NCBI GenBank assembly: GCA_964292275.1 | Contig: CAXYUZ010000011.1 | Location: 13,575 to 77,574 of the forward strand | Reading direction: 5' to 3' | Source: an uncultured Desulfuromonadaceae bacterium | Lineage (GTDB): Bacteria > Desulfobacterota > Desulfuromonadia > Geobacterales > Pseudopelobacteraceae | DNA: 64,000 bases | In this document: one piece after another, positions 2,862 to 53,636 of the stretch | Layout of the letters: each line of letters begins with the position of its first letter | Numbering within the stretch: the first letter of the stretch is position 1 | Notes under the pieces: generated by a model | Database searches by the model: none | Seen by the model: the letters and a program-made list of their open reading frames with translations, nothing else | What the model was told of the DNA's origin: nothing | Program-made: the position numbers and the translations under genes

Positions 2862-4129
2862 GTGGAGAAGTGAAGCCGGGATACAAGCAGACGGAAGTAG
2901 GGGTGATTCCGGAGGAGTGGGAGGTGAAGCGGCTTGGTGAGTTAGCAAGTTTTGTTACCAGCGGCTCACGAGGGTGGGCACAGTTCTATTCTGAAAGTGG
3001 AGCCCTGTTTATTCGGAGCCAAAATGTTCGTGATGGCAGGCTTAGTTTCGACGACACCCAATATGTTACACCGCCGATTGGGACTGAGGGTAATAGAACC
3101 AAAGTGGAGCTGAATGATCTGTTAATAACTATAACTGGCAACAGTGTCGGCAACGTTGCTCTGGTGGCTCAGGCATTCGATGAAGCCTATATCAGTCAGC
3201 ATGTTGGCCTTGTGCGTTTAAATGAGCCTAAGTCGGCTGCGTTCATCTGTCGATATCTTTCTCCCAGTTCACCAGGAAACCCACAGATTACAGGGAGTCA
3301 GTCTGGTCAAAGTAAGCCCGGCCTGAATCTGCAAAACCTTAGAGATTTTTGGATTGCTCTTCCACCAACAACTGAGGAGCTCTATGCGATTGCGGCTGCC
3401 TTGAGCGATGTGGATGAACTGTTGAACGGACTGGACCGGCTTATCGCCAAGAAACGTGACCTTAAAAAGGCCGCCATGCAGCAACTCCTCACCGGCAAAA
3501 CCCGCCTACCAGGTTTTACTGGGGATTGGGAGGTAAAGCGATTAGGAAGTACGGCTACTCTCAAAGCACGCATTGGCTGGCAAGGATTAACGACAGCAGA
3601 ATATCTTGACAGCGGGGATTACTATTTGGTCACAGGCACAGAATTCAAGAATGGCTACATCGACTGGAACAGCTGCCACCACGTAGATGAATCTCGCTAC
3701 ATGCAGGACAAATACATACAGTTGAAAAGACATGATGTCCTAGTTACAAAGGATGGAACTATTGGCAAGGTAGCTTTAATTACTGAACTTCCAAAACCAG
3801 CTACTCTTAATAGCGGTGTTTTCGTAATACGGCCTTTAGAAAATGCTTTCCATCCAGAATTTTTTTATTATTTGCTCTGTTCTAAAGCTTTCAAGGAATT
3901 TCTTGGGCAACTCAGTGCCGGGTCAACGATTAACCACCTTTACCAGAAAGACTTCGTAAGTTTTACTTACAAAACTCCTCCAAGTATTGAAGAACAAGAA
4001 GCCATAGCTACTGTTCTATCCGACATGGACGCCGAACTGGCGGCGCTGGAAGCGCGGCGCGACAAGACCCGCCTGCTCAAGCAGGGGATGATGCAGGAGC
4101 TCTTGACCGGGAGGACAAGGCTGGTGTAA
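2858..4129 (+). CDS. hsdS: Type I restriction specificity subunit HsdS (two target-recognition domains)
   Basis: 423 aa. Two-TRD architecture with conserved central and C-terminal repeats (LLTGKTRLPGF...WEVKRLG ; LLTGRTRLV). The second TRD (about 3540-4000) is markedly AT-rich, typical of exchanged TRDs. Confidence 0.85.
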   Translation: MSGEVKPGYKQTEVGVIPEEWEVKRLGELASFVTSGSRGWAQFYSESGALFIRSQNVRDGRLSFDDTQYVTPPIGTEGNRTKVELNDLLITITGNSVGNVALVAQAFDEAYISQHVGLVRLNEPKSAAFICRYLSPSSPGNPQITGSQSGQSKPGLNLQNLRDFWIALPPTTEELYAIAAALSDVDELLNGLDRLIAKKRDLKKAAMQQLLTGKTRLPGFTGDWEVKRLGSTATLKARIGWQGLTTAEYLDSGDYYLVTGTEFKNGYIDWNSCHHVDESRYMQDKYIQLKRHDVLVTKDGTIGKVALITELPKPATLNSGVFVIRPLENAFHPEFFYYLLCSKAFKEFLGQLSAGSTINHLYQKDFVSFTYKTPPSIEEQEAIATVLSDMDAELAALEARRDKTRLLKQGMMQELLTGRTRLV

Positions 4130-4135
4130 ATCTTC

Positions 4136-4243
4136 TCACGCGGAGACGCGGAGAGCGCAGAGAAAGGCTTTTAAAAATGTGGAGTTTAAACCTATTACAA
4201 AGACTTGCTTTCCGATTTTCTCCGCGTCCTCCGCGGCTCCGCG
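4136..4243. repeat. Imperfect inverted repeat / stem-loop in the hsdS-GxxExxY spacer
   Basis: Left arm cacgcggagacgcggagagcg (4136-4156) against right arm ttctccgcgtcctccgcggctccgcgtg (4216-4243), giving about 19 bp of complementarity around a roughly 60 nt loop. Confidence 0.5.
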
Positions 4244-4270
4244 TGAAACTTTTGACTGTAATCACAGAGG

Positions 4271-4714
4271 TTGACCATGAAAGAACTCGACGACATAACT
4301 GGTATCATCATCGACTCCGCAATAAAAATACACAAAGATATTGGCCCCGGCCTTCTGGAATCAGTTTACGAAACAATACTTGCACGTGAGCTGGATCGGC
4401 GAGGCCTCAAGGTGGAACGGCAAAAGATTATCCGGTTTGAGTACGACGATATGATTTTTGAGGAAGGTTTTCGTACCGACCTGCTCGTCGACAGCCGTAT
4501 TGTCTTGGAACTTAAATCCGTGGAAAAACTGGCCCCAGTCCACAACAAGCAACTGCTTACCTATCTGCGTTTGATGAATCTCTCCGTCGGCCTGCTTATC
4601 AACTTCGGTGCCGCCACCCTCAAAGAAGGCTTAAACCGTGTTGTCAACAACTACTCCCCCCCAACATCTCCGTATCTCCGCGTGGATAAAAAGCAGGAGC
4701 AGCCCTATGCCTGA
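4271..4714 (+). CDS. GxxExxY-family protein (PD-(D/E)XK nuclease superfamily)
   Basis: 147 aa. Motif [10 protein letters not shown] followed by D...ELK signature residues ([13 protein letters not shown]). The stop overlaps the hsdR start (ATGCCTGA). Confidence 0.8.
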
Positions 4715-7700
4715 ACAACCCCGTTCCGAACGCAAAACACAGAACCGCGTTATTAACCTGTTTACAGACAGCCTTGGTTATGATTACCTCGGCGAATGGA
4801 ACAAGCGCGATAACAACCGTCCCATCGAAACGGAATATCTACGGGCAAACCTTGCGAATCGTGGCTACTCCCCTACCCATATCTCCGCCGCCCTGCAGAA
4901 GCTGGAAACTGCTGCCGATGCCACCGGCATTACTCTCTATCAAGCCAATATGCGTACCTATCAGCTTCTGCGCTATGGGGTGCCGGTACAGGTTGCCGCC
5001 GGACAGGCACATGAGACAGTTCACCTGATTGATTGGACAGACACGGGAAATAACGACTTCGCCCTGGCCGAGGAGGTAACGCTCAAGGGAGGCTATGAGC
5101 GCCGACCGGATATTGTGCTTTACATTAACGGTATCGCTATTGCCATAATAGAGCTCAAGCGCAGCTCGGTAGAAATTGCCGACGGTGTGCGACAGCTCAT
5201 CACCAATCAGGAGGAGATTTTCAACAAGGGCTTTTTCAGCACGGTGCAGCTTGTTTTGGCAGGCAGCGATTCACAAGGAGTGCTCTATGGCACCACCGGA
5301 ACGCCGGAACAGTTTTTTGTGCAGTGGAAGGATGAAAATAATGAAGAATTGACGGCAAATAGTCATTCTCAATTATCATCTCTCAATTCTCAATTCACCG
5401 CTGGTGAACTGCTCGACCGGCCACTGGCACAGTTGTGCAGCAAGGAGCGGTTGCTCGACCTGATTCGCAACTTCGTTATTTTCGATGCCGGTCAGAAGAA
5501 GGTGCCGCGCCAACATCAGTTTTTCGGAGTGAAAGCGGCCCAGGAACGCATTGCCAAGCGCGAGGGTGGCGTTATCTGGCATACGCAAGGGAGCGGCAAG
5601 AGCATCCTGATGGTGCTGATTGCCAAGTGGCTGCTGGAGTATGACCCGGACGCCCGCATCCTCATCATCACCGACCGGGACGAGTTGGACAAACAGATTG
5701 AGGGGGTTATGAAGAACGCCGGTGTAATCGGCGCTGAATCCCCCTCCCCGCGTATAACATCACGGGCTGAATTTATCCAAAAGCTTGGGGAGTCTACGCC
5801 ACGGCTGCTGTGCGCCCTGATCCACAAGTTCGACGTGGCCGACCTGAAGGGGCCATCATCCAAGGTTACCGGACGCTTCTATGTATTTGTGGATGAGTGC
5901 CACCGTACCCAGGGTGGCGACATGAACAAGCAGATGAAGCGCTGGTTGGAGGGTGCTATCTTCATCGGCTTTACCGGCACACCGCTCCTGCGTAAGGACA
6001 AGCAGATGACGCGGGATGTTTTCGGCACCTACATTCATACCTACAAGTTTCATCAGGCTGTAGCCGACAAGGTCGTGCTTGACCTGAAATATGAGGCTCG
6101 CGACATTCCGCAGAAGCTGACATCACGAAAAGCCATTGATGACTGGTTTGAGAAAAGAACAAAGGGATTGAACAACTTTCAGAAGGCTGTGCTGCGCAAA
6201 CGCTGGGCCACGCTTGAGAAGCTGATGAGCTCCGGCGGTCGCAAACAAATGATCGTCAACAGTATCATTGAGGACTTCGGCCTGAAGCATCGCTTGAGCA
6301 ACGACCGCGGCACGGCCATTCTGGTGGCAGCCAGTATCTACGAAGCCTGTCATTATTTCCGACTGTTTCAGAATACATTCTTCGGCTGTTACTGCGGCAT
6401 CATCACCTCTTTCGAGCCAAACCCTAATGCAATCTCACGCGAACCCAAGGAGAGTGACGAACGTTACAAGTTCGACACCTACACCAAGCACGTACTCAAG
6501 AGTGGCCAGACAACCAAACAGTATGAAGATGAGGTCAAACGCAGATTTATCGAGGAACCGGCCAATCTCAAGCTCTTGATCGTAGTTAGCAAGTTGTTGA
6601 CCGGCTTTGATGCGCCGAGCTGCACCTACATCTATCTGGACAACGAGCTGCACGACCACAACCTGTTCCAGGCCATCTGCCGCACCAACCGGCTTGACGG
6701 AGACGACAAAGATTACGGCTATATTGTGGACTTCAAGGAGTTGTTTGGCGACGTACAGCAGGCCATTGCGGTTTACAGCTCCGACGAACTGGACATTGAC
6801 GAGGCTGGCGGTGATAACAATGTCCACCTGAAAAACTGGCTGGAAGAAGGGAAGAAACAGCTCGACCAGGCCCGAGAGGCGCTGCGTTATCTGTGCGACC
6901 CGGTTCCAGTACCGCGCGAAATGGAGCAATACCTACACTACTTCTGCGGCGACGCCACCAATCCAAACGCCCTGAATGAGACCGAACCGCTGCGGGTTTC
7001 CTTCTACAAGGCGGTTGCCACCTTTGTCCGCGCCTTTGCCGCCATTGCCCAGGAGTTGACCGACGCAGGCTATACGGATGCCGAAGCGGCAGCCATCCAG
7101 AAGGAGGTAGAGTTTTATAGCGACATCAGAGGCGCCATCAAGAAGCACTCCGGCGAGGAGCTAGATATCAAGCCCTACGAAGCGGATATGCGCCACCTGA
7201 TCAACAGCTATATCCAGGCTGACCCGGCGGCAGAGCTGGGGGAGCTGGGCGATATGTCACTGACCGAGCTTATCATTGAGACCGGCATCCATGACGCCAT
7301 TGCCAAGTCACTCAACAAAAAGGGCAAACTCTCCAAAAACGCCATTGCAGAAGGAATTATCAACAACGTCCGTAAGAAGATAATCAGAGAACAACTGACC
7401 GACCCTCGGTTCTACGAGCAGATGTCCAAACTGCTTGATGACCTGATAAAGCAAAGCCGGACCGACGCGAAAGCCTACGAAGAGTTTCTGCGCAAGGCCG
7501 AGGCGTTGGTAAAACGACTGGCGACACGGCAACCAGAAGCAGGTATTCCGGCAGTTCTGCACGGGAAAGACGAGGCCATAGTGCTCTTCAACAATCTGTC
7601 TACGATTCCTGCCACCACATTCCAATACCCTACTGAAGACGAGGAAAGGGCAATGCTTGCCCTTGAACTGGATCATGTTGTCTGTTCAGAAGCCCCTGCC

Positions 7701-7826
7701 AACTGGCAAGGAGACGACGCGCGGGAGATTCAGGTTATGAATGCCTTGTACCCCAAGATGTCCCGTGACCGGGAAGCGACCAGAGCAATATTTGAAATCA
7801 TCAAGAATCAACCGGGCTACCAATGA
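4707..7826 (+). CDS. hsdR: Type I restriction enzyme endonuclease/helicase subunit HsdR
   Basis: Walker A HTQGSGKS and DEAH/DECH box [10 protein letters not shown], with a length typical of HsdR. Start chosen at ATG 4707 (MPEQPRSE...), overlapping the stop of the preceding gene. The track's 4638 start would overlap 77 bp. Confidence 0.85.
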
Positions 7827-41703: not shown

Positions 41704-43206
41704 TTACGGCATTATCAGTCTGATGTTATCCGCAGGTCTCTCAAATGCCTTGTATTTCTCCAGGGCATGGCAGGCTGCCGTCAAATCGCCGAAATCTATT
41801 TTGCTGATAAATTCCTGGGCGACGCACATGACTCTTATGAACGCACTTGGATCCTTGTGATTGGAGAGCAGTTTCAGGGATGAGATATATTCGTTGCGGT
41901 ATACGCTTGGAATGATGATCCGGCAGATACCTGCAGCCACAAGCTCGGCATTCATCATTGCCCGCGCAGTCCTGCCATTACCGTCGTCAAACGGGTGCAC
42001 CTCGGATACCAGATACATCATGAACAATGCGCGTGCCAAAGGATCAATCAAAGAGTTGTAGAACGCAAAACCTTGCGTAAGTGTGCCCTTTACCAGTTCC
42101 GGTGAAACAAAATAGGTTGTGCCGGCCCGGTTTCCTTTCTCTTTCAGTTCCCCAGGTCTTTTGTCCGGACGGCCCGCCAGGATCATGGCATGACGGTTTC
42201 TCAAAAGCTCCAGAAAAGATGCGGCATCTGCAGGTTTACGGCGCATATCCTCCAGATTGCCGACCACGCGATAAGTGCCAAGGATATCGTGAGCGTCCTC
42301 AGGACGTGACTGGGGGATTACTCCTGAAAAAATGATTCCCAGGGCTTCATCTACTTCAAATTCAGTCCCCTCAATAAAATTGGAAAAATAGGCATCGAAA
42401 AAACTTTCATTGTAAAAAGCATTCCCGGGCTCGTAAAGGCAACCTCTTTCAGGTAATACCTCGCGTGCCAGAGCAGTGCGGAGAGCTTCAAACTGCTCCA
42501 GCCGCACAGGATCATATGGCTCGCCGCTGAAGTACGATTTTGCTACCATGGTTTTCAATTCAGCTTCCCGTGTCCGGAGCAGGCTGCCAATAATACGGTC
42601 CAACTGCTGAAATTCTTTTTCATGACCTAAATCAGCTGCAATGCTGCGGGCATTATCCCGTATCCTGTTCAACTCATCTTCGCCCTTTATGCGCAGGATG
42701 ATGGTCAATTTTTCCTCGACAGCCGTCTGTCCTGCCGATTTGGATATTCCCCCCTTGTCTTTTGTCGGTGCAAGGTTTTCCAGTAACAGCCTTGCAGTGG
42801 AAGACATATAAAGTCCTCCAACGAACGGCATATCACCATTTGCAGGCCCCGAGCCTATAATCCTGATAATACGCAAACCGGGCAACTCGGTGGTCTTTTT
42901 ATAGTTATAGGAGATAAAAACCGAGCCATCCGCAGCAGGTTGATTTTCAAGCGCAGTGCGGAACCCGATCACCCCTCCGGGTGCCAGCATGCCGACAATC
43001 TGCCAGCGGTTCCTGGCGACAATTACCTCCACCGGCTCGCTCATATTGCGTGTGTACAGACGTGGGCCGATTTTTCTGATGATACCCTGTTTAACCATTT
43101 GCGATACTTCGCGTGACGTATCGCTCTCGGAGAGAAAAACTTCCTGTTGAATATTTTTGTTCCGTAAAGTCATCTGGATACCCGCATCTGGAGATTTTGG
43201 TAACAA
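41704..43206 (-). CDS. Fic/DOC family protein (AMPylase-like) with large N-terminal domain
   Basis: Fic motif HPFDDGNGRTARA. 500 aa. Confidence 0.8.
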   Translation of the reverse strand: MLPKSPDAGIQMTLRNKNIQQEVFLSESDTSREVSQMVKQGIIRKIGPRLYTRNMSEPVEVIVARNRWQIVGMLAPGGVIGFRTALENQPAADGSVFISYNYKKTTELPGLRIIRIIGSGPANGDMPFVGGLYMSSTARLLLENLAPTKDKGGISKSAGQTAVEEKLTIILRIKGEDELNRIRDNARSIAADLGHEKEFQQLDRIIGSLLRTREAELKTMVAKSYFSGEPYDPVRLEQFEALRTALAREVLPERGCLYEPGNAFYNESFFDAYFSNFIEGTEFEVDEALGIIFSGVIPQSRPEDAHDILGTYRVVGNLEDMRRKPADAASFLELLRNRHAMILAGRPDKRPGELKEKGNRAGTTYFVSPELVKGTLTQGFAFYNSLIDPLARALFMMYLVSEVHPFDDGNGRTARAMMNAELVAAGICRIIIPSVYRNEYISSLKLLSNHKDPSAFIRVMCVAQEFISKIDFGDLTAACHALEKYKAFERPADNIRLIMP

Positions 43207-43271: not shown

Positions 43272-43310
43272 AAGCAAAAAGGCTGCCCGTTTGGGGCAGC
43301 CTTTTTGCTG
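43272..43310. terminator. Bidirectional rho-independent terminator
   Basis: Stem aaaaaggctgccc/gggcagccttttt. Confidence 0.75.
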
Positions 43311-43452
43311 AGCATTCAATAGAAAAACCTAGGTCAAATTCCAGATAAACACCCCTCAAAACCATAACCATTTGATTTAAAAGGATATATTTTTTGTTGA
43401 AAATATTTTAAAGGAATTTTTCCTATAATTTAAAAGTTTACCTGTCAATAAA

Positions 43453-43725
43453 TCAAATAACCGAAGGGGAACGACTGGCAATGCGATCGTACCCAGCCAT
43501 GAAGCCATCAGCCGCCAACCTGTAGCCGCGGCTGTCTGTTGCTGTAAGCATGCGGTTTGCTTCGTCGTATGTGAAGCTGTAACCTATGTTGCTGTTTGTT
43601 GCGGTGAGGATGTTGTCGTTGGCGTCGGTTACGGCACTGATGATGCCGTCGGCGGTGTAGCTGTATGCGGTGGCGTTGCCTTTGGGGTCGGTCTGTCTGG
43701 TCAGGCGGCCAGCCCACTCAAACAT
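43453..43725 (-). pseudogene. Rhs repeat-protein fragment (internally deleted, truncated copy of main rhs)
   Basis: 90 aa matching the main Rhs segment GRLTRQTDPKGN..YSYTADGIISAVTDAN...ILTATNSNIGYSFTYD...RMLTATDSRGY, with a 32-aa internal deletion and a divergent tail. Confidence 0.7.
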
Positions 43726-44383
43726 AATAAACTAACGAAAACCATATCATGTTATTAAAACTATGAACCACAATACTAGACCAAATTGACTTTGTTTTTT
43801 CATATACTAACGCATATATGATGCCGGGGATAAATAGGTGTACAAAGTCAATTCGTAATCCATGCAATACCATGTAAATGAATGCCGAAACAATTACACC
43901 AGTTGATACACAAAAGTCGGATTTAATTATATTGTAAATATAGCGTCTGCAATAAACTGCTTCTAAAACAGGACCAACGAAGCAAAGCATAACCAAAAAA
44001 TAGAGTCTAGCTACAGGCCCGTAATTTAAAAACAAAGTATATTCCTTAGGCTTGGCAAGTAACTTGTTCAGCCATATGCCATATGGAAAATTGATTAACA
44101 CACATAATATTAATCCGCATACACAATAATAAATAAACTTGTTAAAATCAGTGATCTTAGTTTCTTGTGGACTATAAAACAACCCCAGGCAATAGGTCGT
44201 AGTTAAGATCAAAAGGAATAATATTGTGTGTGATACCAGGTGCTCATTCAAATATTTAACTGGAATAACAACATGAACGAGTTGAGTTAATATAAAGTAA
44301 AATATTAACGAAAATATCACATGTTTACTATTTTTAATTTTTGCCATGGCCTTATCAATATTCATGCAAGCTACCCAATGCAA
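43718..44383 (-). CDS. CPBP (CAAX protease/Abi) family intramembrane protein; putative immunity protein for orphan Rhs-CT
   Basis: 221 aa, polytopic, AT-rich. CPBP motifs (PVLEAVYCRRYIY ; VLHGL ; HSFNNMIW). Overlaps the end of the orphan rhs-CT ORF. Confidence 0.65.
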   Translation of the reverse strand: MHWVACMNIDKAMAKIKNSKHVIFSLIFYFILTQLVHVVIPVKYLNEHLVSHTILFLLILTTTYCLGLFYSPQETKITDFNKFIYYCVCGLILCVLINFPYGIWLNKLLAKPKEYTLFLNYGPVARLYFLVMLCFVGPVLEAVYCRRYIYNIIKSDFCVSTGVIVSAFIYMVLHGLRIDFVHLFIPGIIYALVYEKTKSIWSSIVVHSFNNMIWFSLVYYV

Positions 44384-46245
44384 GTATTTGGATTGTCTTT
44401 ATATTTCGGCTTGTTATTGTTAGGTGTTTTGTAATTCTTAAAAGAAGGATTATTGGGATCAATTGGCAAGGGATCCTTCGGCGGCTTCGTTAAAAGGAAT
44501 CCTGGTAAATCAAAATACCCAGGTGAACCATTCATAAACTCATTAGCTAAGAATCTGCCAGCTTTATCTAACGCCGGGAGATACGGTGCAACACGCTCAA
44601 TTAAATTCAAGAATGGGATCAAGCCAGTAGGGTCTGTAAAATTCACCGGATTATTTTGGACATATCCATACAAATTAACATCCCCACCCGCAAATGAAAT
44701 GGGGTCACGTGATATGAATCTTCCTTCCACCGGGTCGTAGTATCTGGCGCGGTAGTAGTGCAGGGCGGTTTCTCTGTCCCATTCTCTGCCGGTGAAGGTG
44801 TAGGTGTTTTTGAAGTCGGTTGTCTGCCTTGGTATGCCGAATGTGGTGTAGCTGTAGCTTTGTACTGTGTTGCCGTTGTTGTCGGTTATGGCGGTGGTGC
44901 TGCCCAGTCCGTCGGTATGGTAGTAATAGTACTGTCCGTTTCTTTCCATGGCAAGGTGTTCGTCGGTGTTTATGCCGTGGGTGTAGTTGGTTGTTGTGTT
45001 TGTGGTTGTGCCGTTTTCTGTTGTTGCGGTTGTTTCTACGGCTATGTTGTCGTTGTCATAGATGTAGTTTGTGGTGGTTGTTTTGGTGTTGCCGTTGGTT
45101 GTTATGGTTGTCTGTTTTTCTGTTCTTCTGCCGAATGGGTCGTATTTGAATGTGATGGTGCGTTTGTCGGTTTTGTTGGTGAGTTCGGCTTTTATGAGGC
45201 GGTTTTCCGGATCCCAGGTGTATGTCCAGTTTTTGTCGGTGTTGTTTGTGGTTTTGGTGATGGGGTTGCCGTTGTTGTCGTGGGTGTAGCTGTATTGTTT
45301 GCCTTTTACCAGTTGGTTTGCTGCTTCATGCTGGTATCTGGTGTCATGTGGTCCAGGGCCTTGTGTGCGGTTGCCGTTGGCGTCGTAGGTGTAGGTTTCA
45401 TATCCTTTGGGTGTTGTGGCCTGTGTCAGGCGATAGATGGCGTCATAGGTGTATGTTTCGTTTGTACTGCCGGTTTTTGCTGTGCGGTTGCCGGTTTTGT
45501 CGAGGGTGTATTCTGCCTTGGTGATGATGCTGTTGTCTGCTTTGGTGTGGGTGATGGCTGTCAGGCGGTCGGCATCGTCATAGGAGTAGGTTGTCTTGCT
45601 GTTGTTGGGATAGTTGAGTGTTGTTCTGCGGTTGTTGTTGTCGTAGCTGTAGCTGAATGATCCTGCCAGTGATGTTATGGATGTGAGTCTGTTGGCATCG
45701 TCGTAGCTGTAGGTTGTGGTTTTTGCGGGGGTGCCGGTTTTATTGATGGTGGCGGTGGTGCGGTTGCCGTTTATGTCGTAGGTGTAAGCAATGTTGTAGC
45801 CGCGGCTGTCTGTGGCTGTCAGCATGCGGTTTCTGCTGTCATAGGTGAAGCTGTAACCTATGTTGCTGTTTGTTGCGGTGAGGATGTTGTCGTTGTTGTC
45901 ATAGCTGTAGCTGATGCTGCTGTTGTCCGGCCATGTTTTTGATGTGATCCGGTCTGCAGCATCGCGGGTGTAGGTGATGGTTTTGCTGTTGGCGTCGGTT
46001 ACTGCGCTGATGATGCCGTCGGCGGTGTAGCTGTATGTGGTGGTATTGCCTTTGGGGTCGGTCTGTCTGGTCAGGCGGCCGGCTTTGTCGTATTCATAAC
46101 TGGTGCTGTTGGCAAGCGGATCTGTGAGTGATACCAGTTTGTCATTGCCGCCACCGCCGCAGGATGCACAGCCGGAGCCGCTGTAGGCCAGTGCGGTGGT
46201 GTGGTTGAGGGGGTGGCGGCTTTTTATTTTATGTTTCCTTCTATT
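44371..46245 (-). CDS. Orphan Rhs C-terminal cassette: Rhs repeats + PxxxxDPxGL boundary + alternative CT toxin domain; lacks start codon upstream of internal Met 45825
   Basis: The open frame runs from the TGA at 46246-46248 to the stop at 44371, with no ATG/GTG/TTG before 45825. 44640-46222 is nearly identical to main rhs 47577-49137. The CT sequence after NPVNFTDPTGL differs from the main gene. Confidence 0.7.
   Translation of the reverse strand, partial: NRRKHKIKSRHPLNHTTALAYSGSGCASCGGGGNDKLVSLTDPLANSTSYEYDKAGRLTRQTDPKGNTTTYSYTADGIISAVTDANSKTITYTRDAADRITSKTWPDNSSISYSYDNNDNILTATNSNIGYSFTYDSRNRMLTATDSRGYNIAYTYDINGNRTTATINKTGTPAKTTTYSYDDANRLTSITSLAGSFSYSYDNNNRRTTLNYPNNSKTTYSYDDADRLTAITHTKADNSIITKAEYTLDKTGNRTAKTGSTNETYTYDAIYRLTQATTPKGYETYTYDANGNRTQGPGPHDTRYQHEAANQLVKGKQYSYTHDNNGNPITKTTNNTDKNWTYTWDPENRLIKAELTNKTDKRTITFKYDPFGRRTEKQTTITTNGNTKTTTTNYIYDNDNIAVETTATTENGTTTNTTTNYTHGINTDEHLAMERNGQYYYYHTDGLGSTTAITDNNGNTVQSYSYTTFGIPRQTTDFKNTYTFTGREWDRETALHYYRARYYDPVEGRFISRDPISFAGGDVNLYGYVQNNPVNFTDPTGLIPFLNLIERVAPYLPALDKAGRFLANEFMNGSPGYFDLPGFLLTKPPKDPLPIDPNNPSFKNYKTPNNNKPKYKDNPNTCIG
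44640..46222. repeat. 1.58-kb direct repeat (orphan copy) of rhs core
   Basis: Near-identical to 47577-49137 with only a few substitutions. Ends at the PxxxxDPxGL-encoding boundary. Confidence 0.85.
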
Positions 46246-46667
46246 TCAGATAGTTCTAAGAGAGCGTCATCTAATTCTTCTCGTGTTTCAATATCAAATG
46301 GCTTCATTGAGTTGATAAGATTTATTAACTGCTTGTATTTTAAAATAGCTGTGCTTAATTCTCCCATATTTTTGTAATTTTGAGCTAAATCATGTAATGC
46401 CCTTATATTATCAGGCTGAATACTCAAAACTTTACAATAGCAATCTCTTGCAGCCATCATATCATTGACGACATTTTTATCATTTGAGCCATCAAGTTCT
46501 CTTGCAAACGCACCTAATTCTAAAACATTACCATTAAGTATCAATGCATCTATATCGTTAGCATTATTACCAAGCAACTTCTTGAGTATACAGATTGCTT
46601 TGTTGTAATTACCTACTAATGATTCTTTTTTTGCGGACTCCAACAATTGAATGCGATTTGTTTTCAA
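46224..46667 (-). CDS. TPR-repeat protein (AT-rich), possible immunity/adaptor gene
   Basis: 147 aa with TPR-like helical repeats. AT-rich codon usage unlike the flanking rhs. Confidence 0.5.
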   Translation of the reverse strand: MKTNRIQLLESAKKESLVGNYNKAICILKKLLGNNANDIDALILNGNVLELGAFARELDGSNDKNVVNDMMAARDCYCKVLSIQPDNIRALHDLAQNYKNMGELSTAILKYKQLINLINSMKPFDIETREELDDALLELSEIEGNIK

Positions 46668-46675
46668 AACAATCC

Positions 46676-46762
46676 TCGTATTTGAATTTGACGATACATT
46701 TGTCAGCTTTATTAGTGAGTTCGGCTATTATGAGCCGTTTTTCGGATCCCATGAAACATGGG
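46676..46762 (-). pseudogene. Decayed rhs fragment
   Basis: cgtatttgaatttgacgatacatttgtcagctttattagtgagttcggctattatgagccgtttttcggatccca is about 80% identical to rhs 45131-45210 and 48060-48140, with AT-shifted substitutions. Confidence 0.6.
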
Positions 46763-46774
46763 AGCAATGAGAAT

Positions 46775-47149
46775 TTACTCAATATATCTTAAAGTTAATT
46801 CACCGCCATCCACTAAATCCTTCATTTGTTCATTGTTTTCCAGTATGTACTGAGAATAAGTAAGTTCTGTCCCACTTACAGGGCGATCATGATCTAAATC
46901 AAATGGTTCAGGATTGCTTATGTTAATTAATTTCCTAAGACCTTCATAAACCATTTTTGCTGCTTTGTTATCGAGAGTCATATCATTATTATAAAAAGCC
47001 TCATTCCTACCAATGACTTCTGCTTTCTCAAGCGCTTCCGTTGATGTTTCGGCTTCAATCAAAACAAAATTTTCATAAACTGGTATTTGTGATTGTGGTT
47101 GTTCAAGGGTTTTAATACTCATAATTATACTTGCAACATACCAAGTCAT
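46775..47149 (-). CDS. Putative Rhs immunity protein (small cytoplasmic protein)
   Basis: 124 aa. ATGA overlap with the main rhs stop. AT-rich. Confidence 0.55.
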   Translation of the reverse strand: MTWYVASIIMSIKTLEQPQSQIPVYENFVLIEAETSTEALEKAEVIGRNEAFYNNDMTLDNKAAKMVYEGLRKLINISNPEPFDLDHDRPVSGTELTYSQYILENNEQMKDLVDGGELTLRYIE

Positions 47150-50100
47150 TTTTTCTCCTTACACTTATCGTTTTGAGTAGAATTTTTTCGGCATCCCAGT
47201 ACTTTTTGAGCTGTTTTAATTTTCATTCTTTCGGCAGTTGATGATGCGTTATTATACTGTTTTATCAGCCAATTACATGGGTCTGGTTGTTGACTAGCTT
47301 CTCTTGAATATTCATTGGCTTTGTTTTGAATACCCCCTTTAGCCATTTGAATTGGTATAGGAATTTCCGGATTAAGCATTGGTTTACCTGTCCAATATCT
47401 CCATGCTTGTACTACCAAGTTATCAGAATTATAATTGTTTTTTAGCCATTCAACGGGGTCTGGACCAGGTCCAGGTTTAATAAAGTTAGGTTTACCGGTA
47501 ATTGGAATTAAAGGTACCGATATCCAAGGAATAGCTATCAATCCATCTGGATCAACCCAATTAACCGGATTCCCTTGGACATACCCATACAAATTAACAT
47601 CCCCACCCGCAAATGAAATGGGGTCACGACTTATGAACCTCCCTTCCACCGGGTCGTAGTATCTGGCTCGGTAGTAGTGCAGGGCGGTTTCTCTGTCCCA
47701 TTCCCTGCCGGTGAAGGTGTAGCTGTTTTTGAAGTCGGTTGTCTGCCTTGGTATGCCGAATGTGGTGTAGCTGTAGCTTTGTACTGTGTTGCCGTTGTTG
47801 TCGGTTATGGCGGTGGTGCTGCCCAGTCCGTCGGTATGGTAGTAATAGTACTGTCCGTTTCTTTCCATGGCAAGGTGTTCGTCGGTGTTTATGCCGTGGG
47901 TGTAGTTGGTTGTTGTGTTTGTGGTTGTGCCGTTTTCTGTTGTTGCGGTTGTTTCTACGGCTATGTTGTCGTTGTCATAGATGTAGTTTGTGGTGGTTGT
48001 TTTGGTGTTGCCGTTGGTTGTTATGGTTGTCTGTTTTTCTGTTCTTCTGCCGAATGGGTCGTATTTGAATGTGATGGTGCGTTTGTCGGTTTTGTTGGTG
48101 AGTTCGGCTTTTATGAGGCGGTTTTCCGGATCCCAGGTGTATGTCCAGTTTTTGTCGGTGTTGTTTGTGGTTTTGGTGATGGGGTTGCCGTTGTTGTCGT
48201 GGGTGTAGCTGTATTGTTTGCCTTTTACCAGTTGGTTTGCTGCTTCGTGCTGGTATCTGGTGTCATGTGGTCCGGGGCCTTGTGTGCGGTTGCCGTTGGC
48301 GTCGTAGTTGTAGGTTTCATATCCTTTGGGTGTTGCGGCCTGTGTCAGGCGATAGATGGCGTCATAGCTGTATGTTTCGTTTGTGCTGCCGGTTTTTGCG
48401 GTGCGATTGCCGGTTTTGTCGAGGGTGTATTCTGCTTTGGTGATGATGCTGTTGTCTGTTTTGGTGTGGGTGATTGCTGTCAGTCGGTCGGCATCGTCAT
48501 GGCTGTAGGTTGCCTTGCTGTTGTTGGGATAGTTCAGCCCTGTTCTGCGGTTGTTGTTGTCATAGCTGTAGCTGAATGATCCTGCCGGTGATGTTATGGA
48601 TGTGAGTCTGTTGGCATCGTCGTAGCTGTAGGTTGTGGTTTTTGCGGGGGTGCCGGTTTTATTGATGGTGGCGGTGGTGCGGTTGCCGTTTATGTCGTAG
48701 GTGTAAGCAATGTTGTAGCCGCGGCTGTCTGTGGCTGTCAGCATGCGGTTTCTGCTGTCATAGGTGAAGCTGTAACCTATGTTGCTGTTTGTTGCGGTGA
48801 GGATGTTGTCGTTGTTGTCATAGCTGTAGCTGATGCTGCTGTTGTCCGGCCATGTTTTTGATGTGATCCGGTCTGCAGCATCGCGGGTGTAGGTGATGGT
48901 TTTGCTGTTGGCGTCGGTTACTGCGCTGATGATGCCGTCGGCGGTGTAGCTGTATGTGGTGGTATTGCCTTTGGGGTCGGTCTGTCTGGTCAGGCGGCCG
49001 GCTTTGTCGTATTCATAACTGGTGCTGTTGGCAAGCGGATCTGTGAGTGATACCAGTTTGTCATTGCCGCCACCGCCGCAGGATGCACAGCCGGAACCGC
49101 TGTAGGCCAGTGCGGTGGTGTGGTTGAGGGGGTTTTTAACCGTCAGGGGCTGGCGGTTGTAGTTGTAGGTGTAGTTTGTGCTTCTGCCGTTGGCATCGGT
49201 TATTGATGAGCGGTTGCCGATTTTGTCATAGGCCAGTTGGGATATGTTGCCAAGGCTGTCGGTGATTTTAACCGGGCGGTTCATGGTGTCATATTCAACA
49301 GTGGCTGCCTTGCCGGCCGGGTTGGTGGCGGTGAGCAGGTTGCCGTTTATGTCATAGCTGTATGTTGTGGTGTTGTTGTTCTGATCGGTTATGCTGCTGA
49401 TGTTGTTGTATGTGTCATAGGCGATTGTTACCACTTTGCCAGCCGGATCGGTAATGGTAAGCGGATTGCCTTTGGAGTCATAGCTGTAGCTGACTACGGC
49501 ACTGGCAGGATCGGTCGTTTGCAGCAGGTTGCCTTTGGTATCATAGCTGTTGCTGGTGACGTTGCCCTTGGGGTCGGTGGCGGTGAGTACCTGGCCGCGG
49601 CTGTTGTAGGTGAATGAGGTGACACGACCAAGCGGATCGGTGATTGATGTGGTGTTGTTGTCGGCGTCGTATGTGTAGCTGGTGGTTTTACTGCCCGGTT
49701 CGGTGCGGGTAAGCAGGTTGCCTTTTGAGTCATAGGTGTAACTTGTTGTATTGCCCAGCGGGTCGGTTATTGCGGTTGGTGCATTAAGGGTTGGATCGTA
49801 TTTTCTGATCCAGATACCTCCGTCTTTCTCGGTGATGGTGCTGGTGGTGCTGTCGGTATAGGTGATGTACTTGGTACGCCCTTCAGGGTCAGTGGCGGCG
49901 CTGTTTTTGCCGGCGGCATCATATACGTTGGTACTTTGAAACCCTTCCGGGTTGGTCTTCTGGCTCATTCTGCTGTTTGAATCATAGACATAGTTCCAGC
50001 TGTTGCCTGCGGGATCGGTAACCTTGTTCAACAGGTTGCTGGTATAGGTAAAGCTGGTGGTTCTGCCGGCAGGGTCAGCAATGGCGGTGATATAGCCGTT

Positions 50101-51114
50101 GGTGACAGTAAAGGTAAGCTTGCGGCCAACCGGATCGGTGATGGAACTCAGATAGCTGCCGTTATAGGTAATGACGGTTTTGTTACCGTTGCTGTCGGTA
50201 ACAGCGGTCAGCAGGCCGGAGTTGTTAAATGACTGCACCAGGCCGTTTTTAAAGGTGCGGGTGTATGTGGAATCACTGTTCTTTACAATGACTGAATCAT
50301 CGGAACTGTTGGCAGGTGGCAGATAACTGCTGCCGGAAAGGGTAAAAACAAGGTTGTCACCATCACCGAGACGAAGTGTAATGGCGCTGGATGATTCCTT
50401 GAGGCTGATGTTGTAACCATGTGTCCAGCCACGCCCAAGCGGCAGATCGGTTGTATCGAGGCTGTTGTAGGATATGTCAAAGGATAAACTCTCAGGTTTG
50501 GCGATGACGGTCTGGGAGTGGTAGTAGTTGCCGCTTTTCAGGTTGGCGGCTGAGTTGGTTGTTGCGGTGTTGGCCGGGCAGGTTTTGCATTGACCGAGGT
50601 CGCGGGGGGGAATAACCGGTGGCGGCGGTGGTGGATAGTTGCAGGTAATCAGGTCGTTACTGGCTGCGCCGCCAGCCCCGAAGAACACCTTTTTGATGAC
50701 ATCGGTATAAACCTGCTTATTGGCAAGGGTGCCTATATTAACTCCTTCAATGGTGCCGGTGTAAGATTTATGCACCAATATGAAGTGTGTGCCCTTGCTG
50801 TTACGGAATACCTTGTTGACATTGTATGAGTTGTTCAAGCCGTATTGCTGCAGTGAGGCTGGGGTTGTTGTGCTGTCGCCATATGAGGCTTCATAGTGTA
50901 CTTTACCGTTCACACAGGTGATTAACGTATCAATGTAATGATGGGTTGTGCTGTCATTGTCACCGGCAGCCGGACAGGTGTCTGCGGTATATTCAATGCC
51001 GATGTTATTAATGCCGTTTTGTACACTGCAAACGCCTTCCGCATTTACAACGGTCGGGGCAATTAATAACGCGGCCACGCTCAAGGCTGAACAGATTTTT
51101 TTAAACGAGAACAT
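47146..51114 (-). CDS. rhs: Rhs/YD-repeat polymorphic toxin, full length, with Sec signal peptide and variable C-terminal toxin domain
   Basis: 1322 aa. Signal peptide MFSFKKICSALSVAALLIAPTVVNA, dozens of YD/Rhs repeats (xYxYDxxGN), the Rhs core, a NPVNWVDPDGL boundary, then about 170 aa of unique CT. Confidence 0.9.
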   Translation of the reverse strand: MFSFKKICSALSVAALLIAPTVVNAEGVCSVQNGINNIGIEYTADTCPAAGDNDSTTHHYIDTLITCVNGKVHYEASYGDSTTTPASLQQYGLNNSYNVNKVFRNSKGTHFILVHKSYTGTIEGVNIGTLANKQVYTDVIKKVFFGAGGAASNDLITCNYPPPPPPVIPPRDLGQCKTCPANTATTNSAANLKSGNYYHSQTVIAKPESLSFDISYNSLDTTDLPLGRGWTHGYNISLKESSSAITLRLGDGDNLVFTLSGSSYLPPANSSDDSVIVKNSDSTYTRTFKNGLVQSFNNSGLLTAVTDSNGNKTVITYNGSYLSSITDPVGRKLTFTVTNGYITAIADPAGRTTSFTYTSNLLNKVTDPAGNSWNYVYDSNSRMSQKTNPEGFQSTNVYDAAGKNSAATDPEGRTKYITYTDSTTSTITEKDGGIWIRKYDPTLNAPTAITDPLGNTTSYTYDSKGNLLTRTEPGSKTTSYTYDADNNTTSITDPLGRVTSFTYNSRGQVLTATDPKGNVTSNSYDTKGNLLQTTDPASAVVSYSYDSKGNPLTITDPAGKVVTIAYDTYNNISSITDQNNNTTTYSYDINGNLLTATNPAGKAATVEYDTMNRPVKITDSLGNISQLAYDKIGNRSSITDANGRSTNYTYNYNRQPLTVKNPLNHTTALAYSGSGCASCGGGGNDKLVSLTDPLANSTSYEYDKAGRLTRQTDPKGNTTTYSYTADGIISAVTDANSKTITYTRDAADRITSKTWPDNSSISYSYDNNDNILTATNSNIGYSFTYDSRNRMLTATDSRGYNIAYTYDINGNRTTATINKTGTPAKTTTYSYDDANRLTSITSPAGSFSYSYDNNNRRTGLNYPNNSKATYSHDDADRLTAITHTKTDNSIITKAEYTLDKTGNRTAKTGSTNETYSYDAIYRLTQAATPKGYETYNYDANGNRTQGPGPHDTRYQHEAANQLVKGKQYSYTHDNNGNPITKTTNNTDKNWTYTWDPENRLIKAELTNKTDKRTITFKYDPFGRRTEKQTTITTNGNTKTTTTNYIYDNDNIAVETTATTENGTTTNTTTNYTHGINTDEHLAMERNGQYYYYHTDGLGSTTAITDNNGNTVQSYSYTTFGIPRQTTDFKNSYTFTGREWDRETALHYYRARYYDPVEGRFISRDPISFAGGDVNLYGYVQGNPVNWVDPDGLIAIPWISVPLIPITGKPNFIKPGPGPDPVEWLKNNYNSDNLVVQAWRYWTGKPMLNPEIPIPIQMAKGGIQNKANEYSREASQQPDPCNWLIKQYNNASSTAERMKIKTAQKVLGCRKNSTQNDKCKEKK
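47577..49137. repeat. 1.58-kb direct repeat (main rhs copy)
   Basis: See 44640-46222. Confidence 0.85.
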
Positions 51115-51235
51115 TTTTAATTCCTTTGTATCGATTTTTCAAATTCACATGGTTCGACAGGCTCACCATGAACGGAATATAAGATGGTTATCATTATGAT
51201 TTTCGAAATCCGTTCACCCTGAGCTTGTCGAAAGG

Positions 51236-52399
51236 TTACTGCACCACCACCCCGCCAACCACCAGACTCCCTTTTGATACCGTTAGAGATCCGCTGATTG
51301 CTGTTGTGCCGGTTTGTGTTGTGTAGCTGCTGTTGTAGCCGCCTTGCAGTTGTATGTTTATATCGCGGTTGAGGTTTATGGTTTCTGCCATCGGCACATC
51401 CCATGCCTTGATGGTTGCATCGTTGTTTGCGGCGTTGTAGGCATTCTGGATGGTGGAGTGGTAATTTGCGCTGCCGTTGGTCAGGTAGACCTGATGGGCG
51501 GTGTCGGGTTGGAAGGTGGCGGTTACGGTGCTGTCTGCGCTGAATGTGAATTGGCAGTCGCCAGTGCCGCTGCATGGGCCGCTCCAGCCACTGAAGGTGG
51601 AGTATGACGGGGTTTGCTGGAGTGTTATCGTATCACCGATGTTGAATGTGGCAGAGCAGTTGCTGCTGCAGGCGATGCCGGTTGGTGTGCTGACGACAAC
51701 GCCCCTGCCGGTGCCGCTGAAGGTAAGGTTGAGTGTGGCGGTGGTCAGTGGCAGGTATTTGAACTGAAATGAACGCCCGCCCAGATTATATGCGGCTCCG
51801 TAGAGTGTTGTCGTGCTGAGATAATGGCTGTGATCATCTTTGGAGATACCGGAACCGGCATCACTGTTTGCGGTTGGAAATGACCTGTAGTCGAAGCGGA
51901 TGGTTCCGTCCGGGTAGAGTATGGCGGCAAAGTTGTTCTGCGTTGCAGATCCTTCCTGATTGTAGTCATCACCCTGCCATTCGATGACTACCCGTTCCGG
52001 TGATGACTTGTGCTGAATAAAAACACCGCCATTCAGATATGACGATTGATCACTGTTAAGAACGGATATGACCGGACCTTTACCGGCATAGGGGAGTGAA
52101 AAGCCATAAGCGGAACCAGGATTACCGAACCAGATATTACCGTTGGTATCCACTGTGATCTGATTGTAACTCTGGCGGTAAAAGGTAAATCCGGAGAATG
52201 AGGCGGGAAGGTTGTAGCTAATGGTTTCATCATCACCGCTGACCGTATCGTAATCAACACTGGAAGCCTGTGGTACAAGCGCAGCGGTGCCGTCCCAAAC
52301 AAATGGCGTCACCTCTGAAATCTGGTAGACGCCATCATCTGCCGCAAAGAGCATGCACGGGGCAAGCGTCAACGCAGCAAGCAAAAGCCGGGTTTTCAT
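51236..52399 (-). CDS. Secreted protein with InlB-B-repeat-like C-terminal domain, upstream of rhs
   Basis: Signal peptide. The C-terminal segment TGIACSSNCSATFNIGDTITLQQTPSYSTFSGWSGPCSGTGDCQFTFSADSTVTATF resembles the bacterial InlB B-repeat pattern. Confidence 0.5.
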   Translation of the reverse strand: MKTRLLLAALTLAPCMLFAADDGVYQISEVTPFVWDGTAALVPQASSVDYDTVSGDDETISYNLPASFSGFTFYRQSYNQITVDTNGNIWFGNPGSAYGFSLPYAGKGPVISVLNSDQSSYLNGGVFIQHKSSPERVVIEWQGDDYNQEGSATQNNFAAILYPDGTIRFDYRSFPTANSDAGSGISKDDHSHYLSTTTLYGAAYNLGGRSFQFKYLPLTTATLNLTFSGTGRGVVVSTPTGIACSSNCSATFNIGDTITLQQTPSYSTFSGWSGPCSGTGDCQFTFSADSTVTATFQPDTAHQVYLTNGSANYHSTIQNAYNAANNDATIKAWDVPMAETINLNRDINIQLQGGYNSSYTTQTGTTAISGSLTVSKGSLVVGGVVVQ

Positions 52400-52517
52400 C
52401 TGATCTCCATGAAATGAGAATAAACATCACAAATACAATTAATTAATAAACTTTTTATGGATTACAGATTACAGAAAGTCAAGATTATTTTAAATATACT
52501 TTCCTAATAGAAGGCAA

Positions 52518-52560
52518 GAAAAAACCCGCACAATCCAGATTAACGGAGGCGGGTTCTTTC
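52518..52560 (-). terminator. Rho-independent terminator after hpnH
   Basis: On the minus strand: aacccgcc-loop-gcgggtt followed by TTTTTTCTT. Confidence 0.7.
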
Positions 52561-52637
52561 TTCTTTATTGACAAGTAAGCGATTGTTTTTATTACATTCA
52601 GCCTAAAACAGAGAAATACAAACAAACCTGTAAAAAA

Positions 52638-53636
52638 CTATGTAAGATTCCAAATAAACATTTCCCAAACGTCTTTCCAGCTCTTGCCGATCTCGTTGAC
52701 GACCGACGGTTCAAAACCGCAGTGCATCATGCATTGGGCGCAGCGGGGGTCTTTGCCGACGCCGTATTTTTCCCACTGGGTTTTTTCCATCATCTCCTTG
52801 TAGGTCGGATAATGGGCATCGGTGATCAGGTAGCAGGGCGCCTTCCATCCCTGGGTATTGCGGGTCGGGTTACCCCAGGGGGTACACTCCAGTTTCTTTT
52901 CCCCTTTGAGGAAGCGCAGATACATCGGTGTTGAGAAAAAGCGATGTTTCTTGCTCATCTCATAAACATCGGCAAACTTGCGTTCGATGTCACGTCTCTC
53001 CAAAAACAGCTTTTCACCAACCGCCTCGTAGCCGAAACCAGGGGCAACCAGCAGGCCATCCACACCGAGTTCCTCCAGATGGGTAAAGAGCATCTCAATC
53101 TCGACCAGGTCGGTTTCATTGAAGATGGTGGTGTTGGTGCAGACGCGAAATCCAAGCTGCTTGGCCTTTTTAATGGCAGCCATGGCGGTCTTGAAGGCCC
53201 CCTTGCGCTCCACGATCCGGTCATGGGTCTCTTCCAGGCCATCCATGTGAATGTTGAGGGTAAAGTTCTGGTGAGGGGTCATACTGTCCAGCGCCTTTTC
53301 CAGCAACAGTGCGTTAGTACAGAGGTAGATATGCTTGCCACGGTCGAGGGTGCCCTTGATCAGTTCAAAGATGTGAGGATAAAGGAACGGTTCGCCGCCG
53401 GTGATGGTGACAACCGGTGCCGGGCAATCATCCACCGACTTGAGACAGTCCTCCAAGGTCATCATCTCCTTGATGGTGTCAGCGTATTCGCGGATGCGTC
53501 CACAGCCGGAACAGGCCAGGTTGCAGAGGTGTGTCGGCTCAAGCATCAATACCAGTGGAAACTTCTCCACCTTGTTCATCTTGTTGCTCATAATGTATTT
53601 CGTCAGATCGTAATTGAGGCGCATTGGAAAACGCAT
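52638..53636 (-). CDS. hpnH: Radical SAM protein, adenosylhopane synthase HpnH-like
   Basis: CxxxCxxC motif (CNLACSGC). Co-located with shc and hpnA. The start is uncertain; internal Mets at MSNKMNK are possible. Confidence 0.7.
   Translation of the reverse strand: MRFPMRLNYDLTKYIMSNKMNKVEKFPLVLMLEPTHLCNLACSGCGRIREYADTIKEMMTLEDCLKSVDDCPAPVVTITGGEPFLYPHIFELIKGTLDRGKHIYLCTNALLLEKALDSMTPHQNFTLNIHMDGLEETHDRIVERKGAFKTAMAAIKKAKQLGFRVCTNTTIFNETDLVEIEMLFTHLEELGVDGLLVAPGFGYEAVGEKLFLERRDIERKFADVYEMSKKHRFFSTPMYLRFLKGEKKLECTPWGNPTRNTQGWKAPCYLITDAHYPTYKEMMEKTQWEKYGVGKDPRCAQCMMHCGFEPSVVNEIGKSWKDVWEMFIWNLT

Follow-up and report, generated by a model that had tools for sequence, protein, structure and literature searches.

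The subject of this study is an rhs locus in a 64-kb window, by which we mean the whole stretch of 64,000 nucleotides of contig CAXYUZ010000011.1 that was analyzed. The locus is, with good though not complete confidence, an Rhs polymorphic-toxin system in which one main gene stands ahead of a series of displaced or orphan modules. Its features all lie on the minus strand and are listed here from the upstream to the downstream end, with CT denoting the C-terminal tip of an Rhs protein and ORF an open reading frame:

51236–52399, minus strand: accessory gene encoding 387 amino acids with a signal peptide, preceded by a GGAG Shine-Dalgarno sequence and located 121 nucleotides upstream of rhs
47146–51114, minus strand: main rhs gene of 1322 amino acids with the RHS/YD shell, a core ending in PVNWVDPDGL and the CT
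47559–49133, minus strand: direct repeat copy B (BLASTN), within the main rhs gene (residues 661 to about 1185)
47149–47541, minus strand: main CT, about 130 amino acids after DPDGL, with a conserved module at 47149–47349
46775–47149, minus strand: predicted immunity gene of the main CT (124 amino acids, DUF4288)
46676–46751, minus strand: rhs scar (77 bp, remnant of a core), 83% identical to 48059–48135
46224–46667, minus strand: ORF resembling tetratricopeptide repeat (TPR) proteins, 147 amino acids, with a TTG start and a GAGGA Shine-Dalgarno sequence
44371–46245, minus strand: orphan rhs-CT, an open frame of 624 codons that ends with PVNFTDPTGL and a CT of 82 amino acids
44640–46214, minus strand: direct repeat copy A (BLASTN), the core of the orphan
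44374–44622, minus strand: orphan CT, 82 amino acids after DPTGL
43718–44365 (or 44383), minus strand: CPBP/Rce1-like gene (Pfam PF02517), presumed immunity gene of the orphan
43453–43725, minus strand: terminal rhs scar, with homology over 43521–43710 in two pieces of 91–93% identity
43273–43309, minus strand: intrinsic terminator that closes the array (hairpin and U-run)

The main gene encodes, in this order, a signal peptide (residues 1–25), a lineage-specific N-terminal domain, a poly-proline linker, DUF6531, the RHS/YD shell, the core, and the CT. By inspection, its N-terminus (MFSFKKICSALSVAALLIAPTVVNA followed by EG) combines a basic n-region, a hydrophobic core, and a VNA (AxA-like) cleavage site, and it is predicted to be a Sec-type signal peptide. 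Searches with Pfam and NCBIfam models matched RHS_repeat (PF05593; E 9.6e-99 in 15 stretches), TIGR01643 (E 4.9e-80), and DUF6531, and they gave no PAAR match at the N-terminus. The Rhs_assc_core model TIGR03696 (E 7.7e-26) covers residues 1116–1192, RYYDPVEGRFISRDP...PVNWVDPDGL, and the core includes a DPxxGRF aspartyl-protease region as well as the terminal PxxxxDPxGL (residues ~1182–1191), the predicted autocleavage motif after which the tip lies. The gene therefore shows what we looked for in an Rhs toxin gene: an RHS/YD shell, a core, a variable CT that is also found on other Rhs scaffolds, and an immunity gene directly downstream, the start of which overlaps the rhs stop codon (ATGA) behind an AAGGAG Shine-Dalgarno sequence.

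The central feature of the locus is a long direct repeat that links this gene to the orphan downstream. BLASTN aligned 44640–46214 with 47559–49133 over 1575 bp without gaps; 36 positions differ (97.7% identity), the offset between the copies is 2919, and the longest identical tracts measure 523 and 508 bp. A repeat of such length and identity rules out chance similarity. Homology of the orphan to the main gene begins at 46214 (residue 661 of the main protein), 10 nucleotides past the stop codon of the preceding TPR-like gene. From there to GYVQ(G/N)NPVN the main and orphan proteins are nearly identical, whereas the 130 and 82 residues that follow DPxGL in them, respectively, are dissimilar. 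The orphan core is recognized by TIGR03696 (E 3e-26) up to its end at PVNFTDPTGL, yet the frame contains no ATG, GTG, or TTG in its first 140 codons, and the first in-frame ATG at 45825 has no Shine-Dalgarno sequence. A 5′ truncation, a position downstream of the main gene in the same orientation, a tract of near-identity, and a different CT that is paired with an immunity gene of its own together mark this element as an orphan module.

Much of this architecture had been proposed in an earlier note on this DNA, which described a full-length Sec-signal Rhs with a coupled immunity gene, a start-less orphan rhs-CT with a different tip and a CPBP immunity gene of its own, a DPxGL boundary between shared and divergent sequence, two decayed rhs fragments, and AT-rich immunity genes. 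The ORF table, the ATGA overlap, the missing start codons, and a PF02517 match above cut-off bear this description out; the motif is present in both copies, with the shared sequence stopping about 12 codons ahead of DPxGL, the fragments are real rhs remnants (83% and 91–93% identity by BLASTN), and the GC content of the immunity genes is 0.30–0.37 versus 0.46–0.57 in the rhs core. The repeat coordinates had to be revised: the 1.58-kb repeat exists, but the interval given for its copy in the main gene (47577–49137) was off by 18 and 4 nucleotides, and the deletion expected at 46223–49137 does correspond to the unit between the repeats, which after correction measures 2919 bp (e.g., 46215–49133). 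The note would have given up its reading for repeats without significant identity or for an orphan that had its own promoter or start and no DPxGL boundary; we found high identity and an orphan that lacks a start and has the boundary.

The structure of the locus recurs in other assemblies. An 81-kb metagenome contig from the European Nucleotide Archive, here called L054, encodes the immunity protein of the main CT and is collinear with window positions 36775–57149 at 99.72% identity over 20,375 bp without gaps, and three more short contigs span the main CT, its immunity gene, the TPR-like gene, and the first ~90 nucleotides of the orphan before they end inside the repeat. Since a separate assembly and three further contigs share the same structure, it is not a one-off mis-join. 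In L054, the ATG at 45825 reads ATA. The window and L054 differ at 57 sites over these 20.4 kb, 54 of which fall into the two repeat copies and occupy the same 27 relative positions in each. In either assembly the two copies have the same allele at these positions, and the 36 sites at which the copies differ from each other are unchanged from the window to L054. The strain-variable blocks fall precisely within the tracts over which the repeat copies are identical, and most of the changes (16 of 25 codons) are synonymous. The terminal rhs scar is a third mixture of these strain alleles, and short contigs from other samples show further mosaics. Such concerted differences would be expected either from gene conversion between the copies or from the collapse of repeats by an assembler, which can mimic it.

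Other database comparisons were less informative. Exact-protein look-ups of the main Rhs, Dxs, and the CPBP protein returned nothing, partly due to differing start-codon calls, while those of the immunity protein and the 387-residue protein were successful, and a scan of a genome collection with the main Rhs found distant relatives only (at most 36% identity), which do not allow a strain-level comparison.

The main CT consists of a variable linker and a conserved C-terminal module of about 65 residues with the pattern MAKGGxQNxxNEYxRxAxxxPDPCxWLxxQY...KIKxAQKxLGCR. A first search found six homologs whose similarity is confined to these last ~65 residues. A profile of the module then matched 146 sequences at E<=1e-3 among 1.84 billion representatives, each time at the extreme C-terminus, and all of the ten longest family members that were checked are Rhs proteins. 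AlphaFold2 predicts a three-helix bundle (mean pLDDT, the model's own confidence score, 76 and around 90 in the core) for which PDB searches gave no match. The main CT is thus best described as the small, predicted helical tip of a widespread and uncharacterised Rhs-CT family. Its module, seen in P0018, P0033, P0050, and other proteins, opens with a near-invariant methionine (MAKGG), and 17 of 148 family members are standalone ORFs of 35–83 residues that start no more than 12 residues from this position, which hints at free-standing or internally initiated forms.

A gene of 124 amino acids encoding a DUF4288 protein without signal peptide directly follows the main CT, and it occupies the same place 3′ of main-type CTs in all three other loci that we inspected, at 47–58% identity (Parachitinimonas caeni, a Joint Genome Institute metagenome, and an NCBI metagenome-assembled genome; L066–L068). 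On these grounds, 46775–47149 is the likely cognate immunity gene of the main CT. From the solubility of DUF4288 and its lack of a signal peptide follows a presumptive cytoplasmic target for the main tip. We found no mention of DUF4288 in the literature, where the pairing of the ~65-residue MAKGG module with this family is undescribed. Among described toxins, the closest candidate was Ntox34, which is known for a GNxxD ... WxCxH signature and an association with Imm-HEAT (Zhang et al. 2012, PMC3482391). The main CT resembles it as a small all-alpha Rhs C-terminal domain with conserved cysteine and lysine and through a weak Pfam match over the same region, but differs by having no evident GNxxD ... 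WxCxH and DUF4288 as its partner. We did not adopt this assignment: Ntox34 (PF15606) scores 14.1 bits against a cut-off of 25 in the main CT, the best score among seven family members is E 0.0015, none of ten long members reaches E<=1e-3, and the partner is DUF4288 rather than Imm-HEAT in all four main-type CT loci including the window.

The orphan CT has two homolog clusters (P0007 and P0008, at 78% and 59% identity) and is composed of one predicted helix and a tail rich in proline, lysine, and asparagine that ends in C-x-G and is its best-conserved part. With a pLDDT of 52, its AlphaFold model is not interpretable, and we therefore made no fold search with it. As in the earlier note, no known toxin fold was recognized in either CT: the main CT had no PDB match and a sub-cut-off Ntox34 score, and the model of the orphan CT is unusable.

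The gene behind the orphan CT belongs to the CPBP family (PF02517, Rce1-like; 61.5 bits against a cut-off of 22.4), and the same succession of an orphan-type CT and a CPBP gene occurs in five other contigs, with CPBP proteins 66% identical to that of the window in four (L061–L064) and 40% identical in the fifth (L065). In L061 (positions 1–2201), an rhs end whose CT is of another kind (it ends in HCGR) comes first, then a CPBP gene, an orphan-type CT with a TTG start but without rhs core, and a second CPBP gene. The two short tips of L061 are unrelated, each has a CPBP partner, and both carry a cysteine 2 or 3 residues from the C-terminus. From its position and this conserved pairing, we regard the CPBP gene as the presumed immunity gene of the orphan CT. 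Since each of the two CT/immunity pairings, main and orphan, is found again in unrelated contigs, they are genuine cassettes.

Among its motifs, the window's CPBP protein has EAxxxR (E136A) for EExxxR, YxxxH for FxxxH, and HxxxN, whereas L054 and the L061 homolog keep EExxxR. E136A, M146I, and G152C are the sole three differences between the window and L054 outside the repeats; all are non-synonymous and lie within 48 nucleotides (43912–43959). This cluster could be a conversion patch, the result of selection, or decay of an orphan immunity gene. CPBP proteins (CAAX-protease-like, also called Abi) reportedly act as immunity proteins for bacteriocins of Firmicutes. As at those loci, a polytopic CPBP protein here directly follows a short secreted peptide, which in our case is an Rhs tip in a diderm. 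By this analogy, and with CPBP being an integral, polytopic membrane protein, the orphan tip would be expected to act at the inner membrane or in the periplasm. A literature search for a link between CPBP and Rhs immunity found none, the matches being coincidences of locus tags, and the pairing of a short proline-rich tip with CPBP is undescribed.

Remnants of further modules complete the array. The TPR-like ORF scores below the Pfam cut-offs of TPR families, is kept in L054 and four other contigs (L054–L058), and is directly fused to the 77-bp scar at 46676–46751. It is probably the orphan immunity-type gene of an older cassette from which the toxin has been deleted, a module that the earlier note had overlooked. 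The terminal scar, which has suffered an internal deletion, starts right where the CPBP gene stops, in the way that the orphan starts just past the stop codon of the TPR-like gene, and is probably the stump of a further, truncated orphan. Between the array and the next gene, a very stable hairpin at 43273–43309 (−29.7 kcal/mol, z −5.55) followed by a U-run forms a strong intrinsic terminator, which an A-run on the other side makes potentially bidirectional; a scan for consensus terminators did not list it. From the main gene down to this hairpin there is no terminator of similar strength, which makes read-through expression of the immunity genes plausible. Within the array, promoter-like and terminator-like matches, including a promoter-like site in both repeat copies (44954–44926 and 47873–47845), are no more frequent than in shuffled sequence and cannot support the earlier description of the orphan as promoterless. 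Its silence is likewise presumptive: in Salmonella, orphan Rhs toxins are transcribed from promoters inside the genes (PMC7043789).

The layout has well-studied counterparts. In Salmonella Typhimurium, recombination over 522 bp of 95% identity between the main gene STM0291 and STM0292 activates a start-less orphan (Koskiniemi et al. 2014, PMC3967940). The window shares with this pair a start-less fragment in the same orientation, a common core, divergence at PxxxxDPxGL, and an immunity gene for the orphan. It differs by a repeat of three times the length and higher identity (1575 bp at 97.7%), by its Geobacteraceae anaerobe host, by a Sec signal in place of an N-terminus linked to type VI secretion (the T6SS), and by unrelated tips and immunity proteins. 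Enterobacterial rhs arrays of dissociated tips gave rise to a model of C-terminal displacement (Jackson et al. 2009, PMC2935791), and they resemble our locus in their units of core fragment, tip, and small ORF 3′ of an intact gene, in AT-rich tips, and in scars of older units. Lineage and delivery domain are different, and one unit in the window retains no more than a scar and an immunity-like gene. Orphan cdiA-CT/cdiI and rhs-CT/rhsI modules have likewise been described as displaced toxin/immunity pairs that are each bounded by a conserved motif (Poole et al. 2011, PMC3150448). This holds here as well, with the difference that CdiA relies on two-partner secretion and a VENN motif rather than the Rhs shell and DPxGL.

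Based on these precedents, the locus may have formed and may function as follows. Incoming cassettes of core, CT, and immunity gene would recombine into the core and push older tips downstream (C-terminal displacement), while read-through would keep the downstream immunity genes expressed and protect the cell against kin that deploy those tips. RecA-dependent recombination between the 1575-bp repeats could then fuse the N-terminal 660 residues of the main protein to the orphan. By coordinate arithmetic, such a crossover would yield a chimera of 1274 amino acids in which signal peptide, N-terminal domain, and shell would deliver the orphan tip, and the 2919-bp unit would be lost or, by unequal sister exchange, duplicated. 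The main tip would act in the cytoplasm and the orphan tip at the inner membrane. Export would be Sec-dependent and T6SS-independent, possibly with the help of the secreted accessory protein. The anatomy and the recombination substrate are plain in the DNA, whereas we infer that recombinational switching takes place, and is of advantage, from the Salmonella system (PMC3967940), where recombinants were demonstrated by experiment.

Several observations weigh against this interpretation. The toxin role of both tips is putative, and the orphan tip in particular, with only 82 amino acids that are not confidently folded, could be something other than a toxin. The EExxxR substitution in the window's CPBP protein may mean that its immunity gene is decaying. 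No recombinant junction was seen in the assemblies, which being built from short reads break inside the repeat and could show none. With a plain deletion the main immunity gene would be lost as well and the cell left open to attack by its siblings; for Salmonella, duplication has therefore been proposed to come first (PMC3967940). For the N-terminal domain, a word-index protein search found no homologs, a weak negative given that the same search missed the Rhs of L054, which contains the query identically. Finally, we identified no route of delivery across the outer membrane.

The layout fits the model of a displaced former tip (PMC2935791) equally well, and the orphan and scars may thus be leftovers of displacement rather than a reservoir of toxins, with only the immunity genes being maintained against kin. 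Two of the three downstream modules are already scars, the TPR-like gene persists without a toxin, three non-synonymous changes are clustered in the CPBP gene of the window, and the displacement model predicts exactly such an array. We still consider such a fossil state possible but rather doubtful: all 624 codons of the orphan frame are open and its core domain and CT are undamaged, a repeat of 97.7% identity with identical tracts of more than 500 bp makes recombination mechanistically unavoidable at some rate, and the experimental activation of the Salmonella orphan occurred with a shorter and more divergent repeat. Mis-assembly, be it of the 1.58-kb repeat or of the whole orphan, appears very improbable. 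The source is probably a metagenome-assembled genome (its proteins were seen only in metagenome-derived records), short contigs break within the repeat, and the concerted strain differences could reflect repeat collapse; against this stand two independent assemblies with the same gap-free 20-kb structure, three further contigs that run from the main CT through the immunity and TPR-like genes into the orphan, the 36 inter-copy differences shared by both assemblies, and the recurrence of both cassette types in unrelated loci.

Two other proposals concern the function of the orphan cassette itself. An internal promoter and a non-canonical start just ahead of DPxGL could make it an expressed, intracellular toxin–antitoxin or addiction module together with its immunity gene, as suggested by the main and orphan tips of Salmonella, which are expressed from a P2 promoter 89 nucleotides upstream of the motif with CTG as the start codon (PMC7043789), by the promoter-like site in both repeat copies, and by the invariant methionine and 17 standalone ORFs of the main-type module, according to which tips can exist in free form. 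We think this unlikely, considering that promoter-like matches are no commoner than in shuffled sequence, that the orphan has neither Shine-Dalgarno sequence nor start codon, and that a membrane-protein partner fits an envelope-acting toxin and not an intracellular one. Internal expression of the orphan can nevertheless coexist with recombinational switching, and the present data speak neither for nor against it. Alternatively, the CPBP protein could be a protease for processing or maturation of the proline-rich peptide, and the 82-residue tip a cleavable tail or sorting signal and no toxin. The family includes proteases of C-terminal sorting signals (MrtJ, MrtS, and myxosortase models of NCBIfam gave matches), a conserved C-x-G closes the tip, whose proline-rich tail is more conserved than its helix, and the catalytic residues are largely intact. 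This, too, seems improbable to us: the sortase-type models score far under their cut-offs, the tip has no transmembrane segment and in this is unlike CTERM signals, the slot after DPxGL with a small downstream gene is the canonical toxin/immunity position, the tandem CT-CPBP-CT-CPBP arrangement of L061 resembles polymorphic cassettes, and Abi/CPBP proteins are said to be established bacteriocin immunity factors. We therefore hold to the interpretation of the locus as a main Rhs toxin gene with displaced and orphan modules.

Upstream of the main gene, the accessory gene may bear on how this Rhs protein is delivered. The 387-residue protein has no Pfam or NCBIfam match, and a PDB profile search came back empty, but homologs with 40–60% identity are encoded in 37 metagenome contigs, about 25 of which have an Rhs gene on the same strand within a few kilobases. 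Their usual order is rhs, CT, immunity gene, and accessory homolog, where the immunity gene belongs to DUF4288 or CPBP in several cases (L098, L092/L093). Members of the family share a conserved N-terminal domain of ~200 residues followed by InlB B-repeat, immunoglobulin-like, or PKD domains, some exceed 1200 residues, and 9 of 17 contain Flg_new_2. The Rhs loci linked to them carry diverse short tips of 75–150 residues, some with orphan arrays, and the N-terminal domain of the main Rhs is common to some of these loci at 28–35% identity. The accessory family comprises conserved, uncharacterised genes linked to rhs and is a candidate accessory factor or adhesin for Sec-dependent Rhs proteins.

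The neighborhood of the locus includes hopanoid and isoprenoid genes, a TonB-dependent receptor, and an aldehyde:ferredoxin oxidoreductase. The 90%-identity cluster of HpnH contains Geobacter sp. AOG2, a Geobacteraceae metagenome-assembled genome, and Oryzomonas sp., and the nearby TonB-dependent receptor gene implies two membranes. These features indicate a host that is anaerobic, diderm, and a member of the Geobacteraceae. No T6SS or type II secretion system families were found among the Pfam-annotated genes within 10 kb on either side or among ten large ORFs in the first 35 kb of the window, and we rejected the idea of a T6SS effector for want of any PAAR or VgrG context. WapA of Bacillus subtilis is reportedly a Sec-dependent, T6SS-independent Rhs/YD toxin with polymorphic CT/immunity pairs. 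The main Rhs resembles it in its N-terminal Sec signal, its Rhs/YD repeats, and its polymorphic CT/immunity pair, yet the host of WapA is a monoderm in which the protein is anchored to the cell wall, and our diderm host therefore needs an extra step at the outer membrane. Very tentatively, and with more doubt than conviction, these features could outline a distinct, T6SS-independent mode of Rhs delivery in anaerobic diderms (the Geobacteraceae and their metagenome relatives) in which a Sec-exported Rhs and a protein of the 387-residue family would deploy unusually small tips of 75–150 residues, either membrane-directed and paired with CPBP or built on the ~65-residue helical module and paired with DUF4288, from repeats under gene conversion that would keep the orphan recombinable.

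Two other groups of genes in the window deserve mention. A Fic-domain gene of 500 amino acids lies directly downstream of the array (41704–43206, minus strand), and in Parachitinimonas caeni a Fic gene is found near an orphan cassette on the opposite strand (L066, 11261–12142), with similarity only in the Fic motif; this co-occurrence is probably coincidence. A type I restriction-modification system (HsdM, HsdS, and HsdR) at positions 28–7826 on the plus strand is unrelated to the rhs locus.

Given that main/orphan arrays and their recombinational activation had already been established elsewhere, our core finding confirms rather than extends what is known in the field. It does carry this architecture into the Geobacteraceae, a family of environmental and biotechnological interest, and presents a Sec-dependent Rhs, judged by its predicted signal peptide, in a diderm. 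The accessory gene could help explain how Rhs toxins with signal peptides leave diderm cells or dock on them. If the concerted strain differences are real, the two repeat copies would be a natural example of gene conversion that maintains the substrate for toxin switching.

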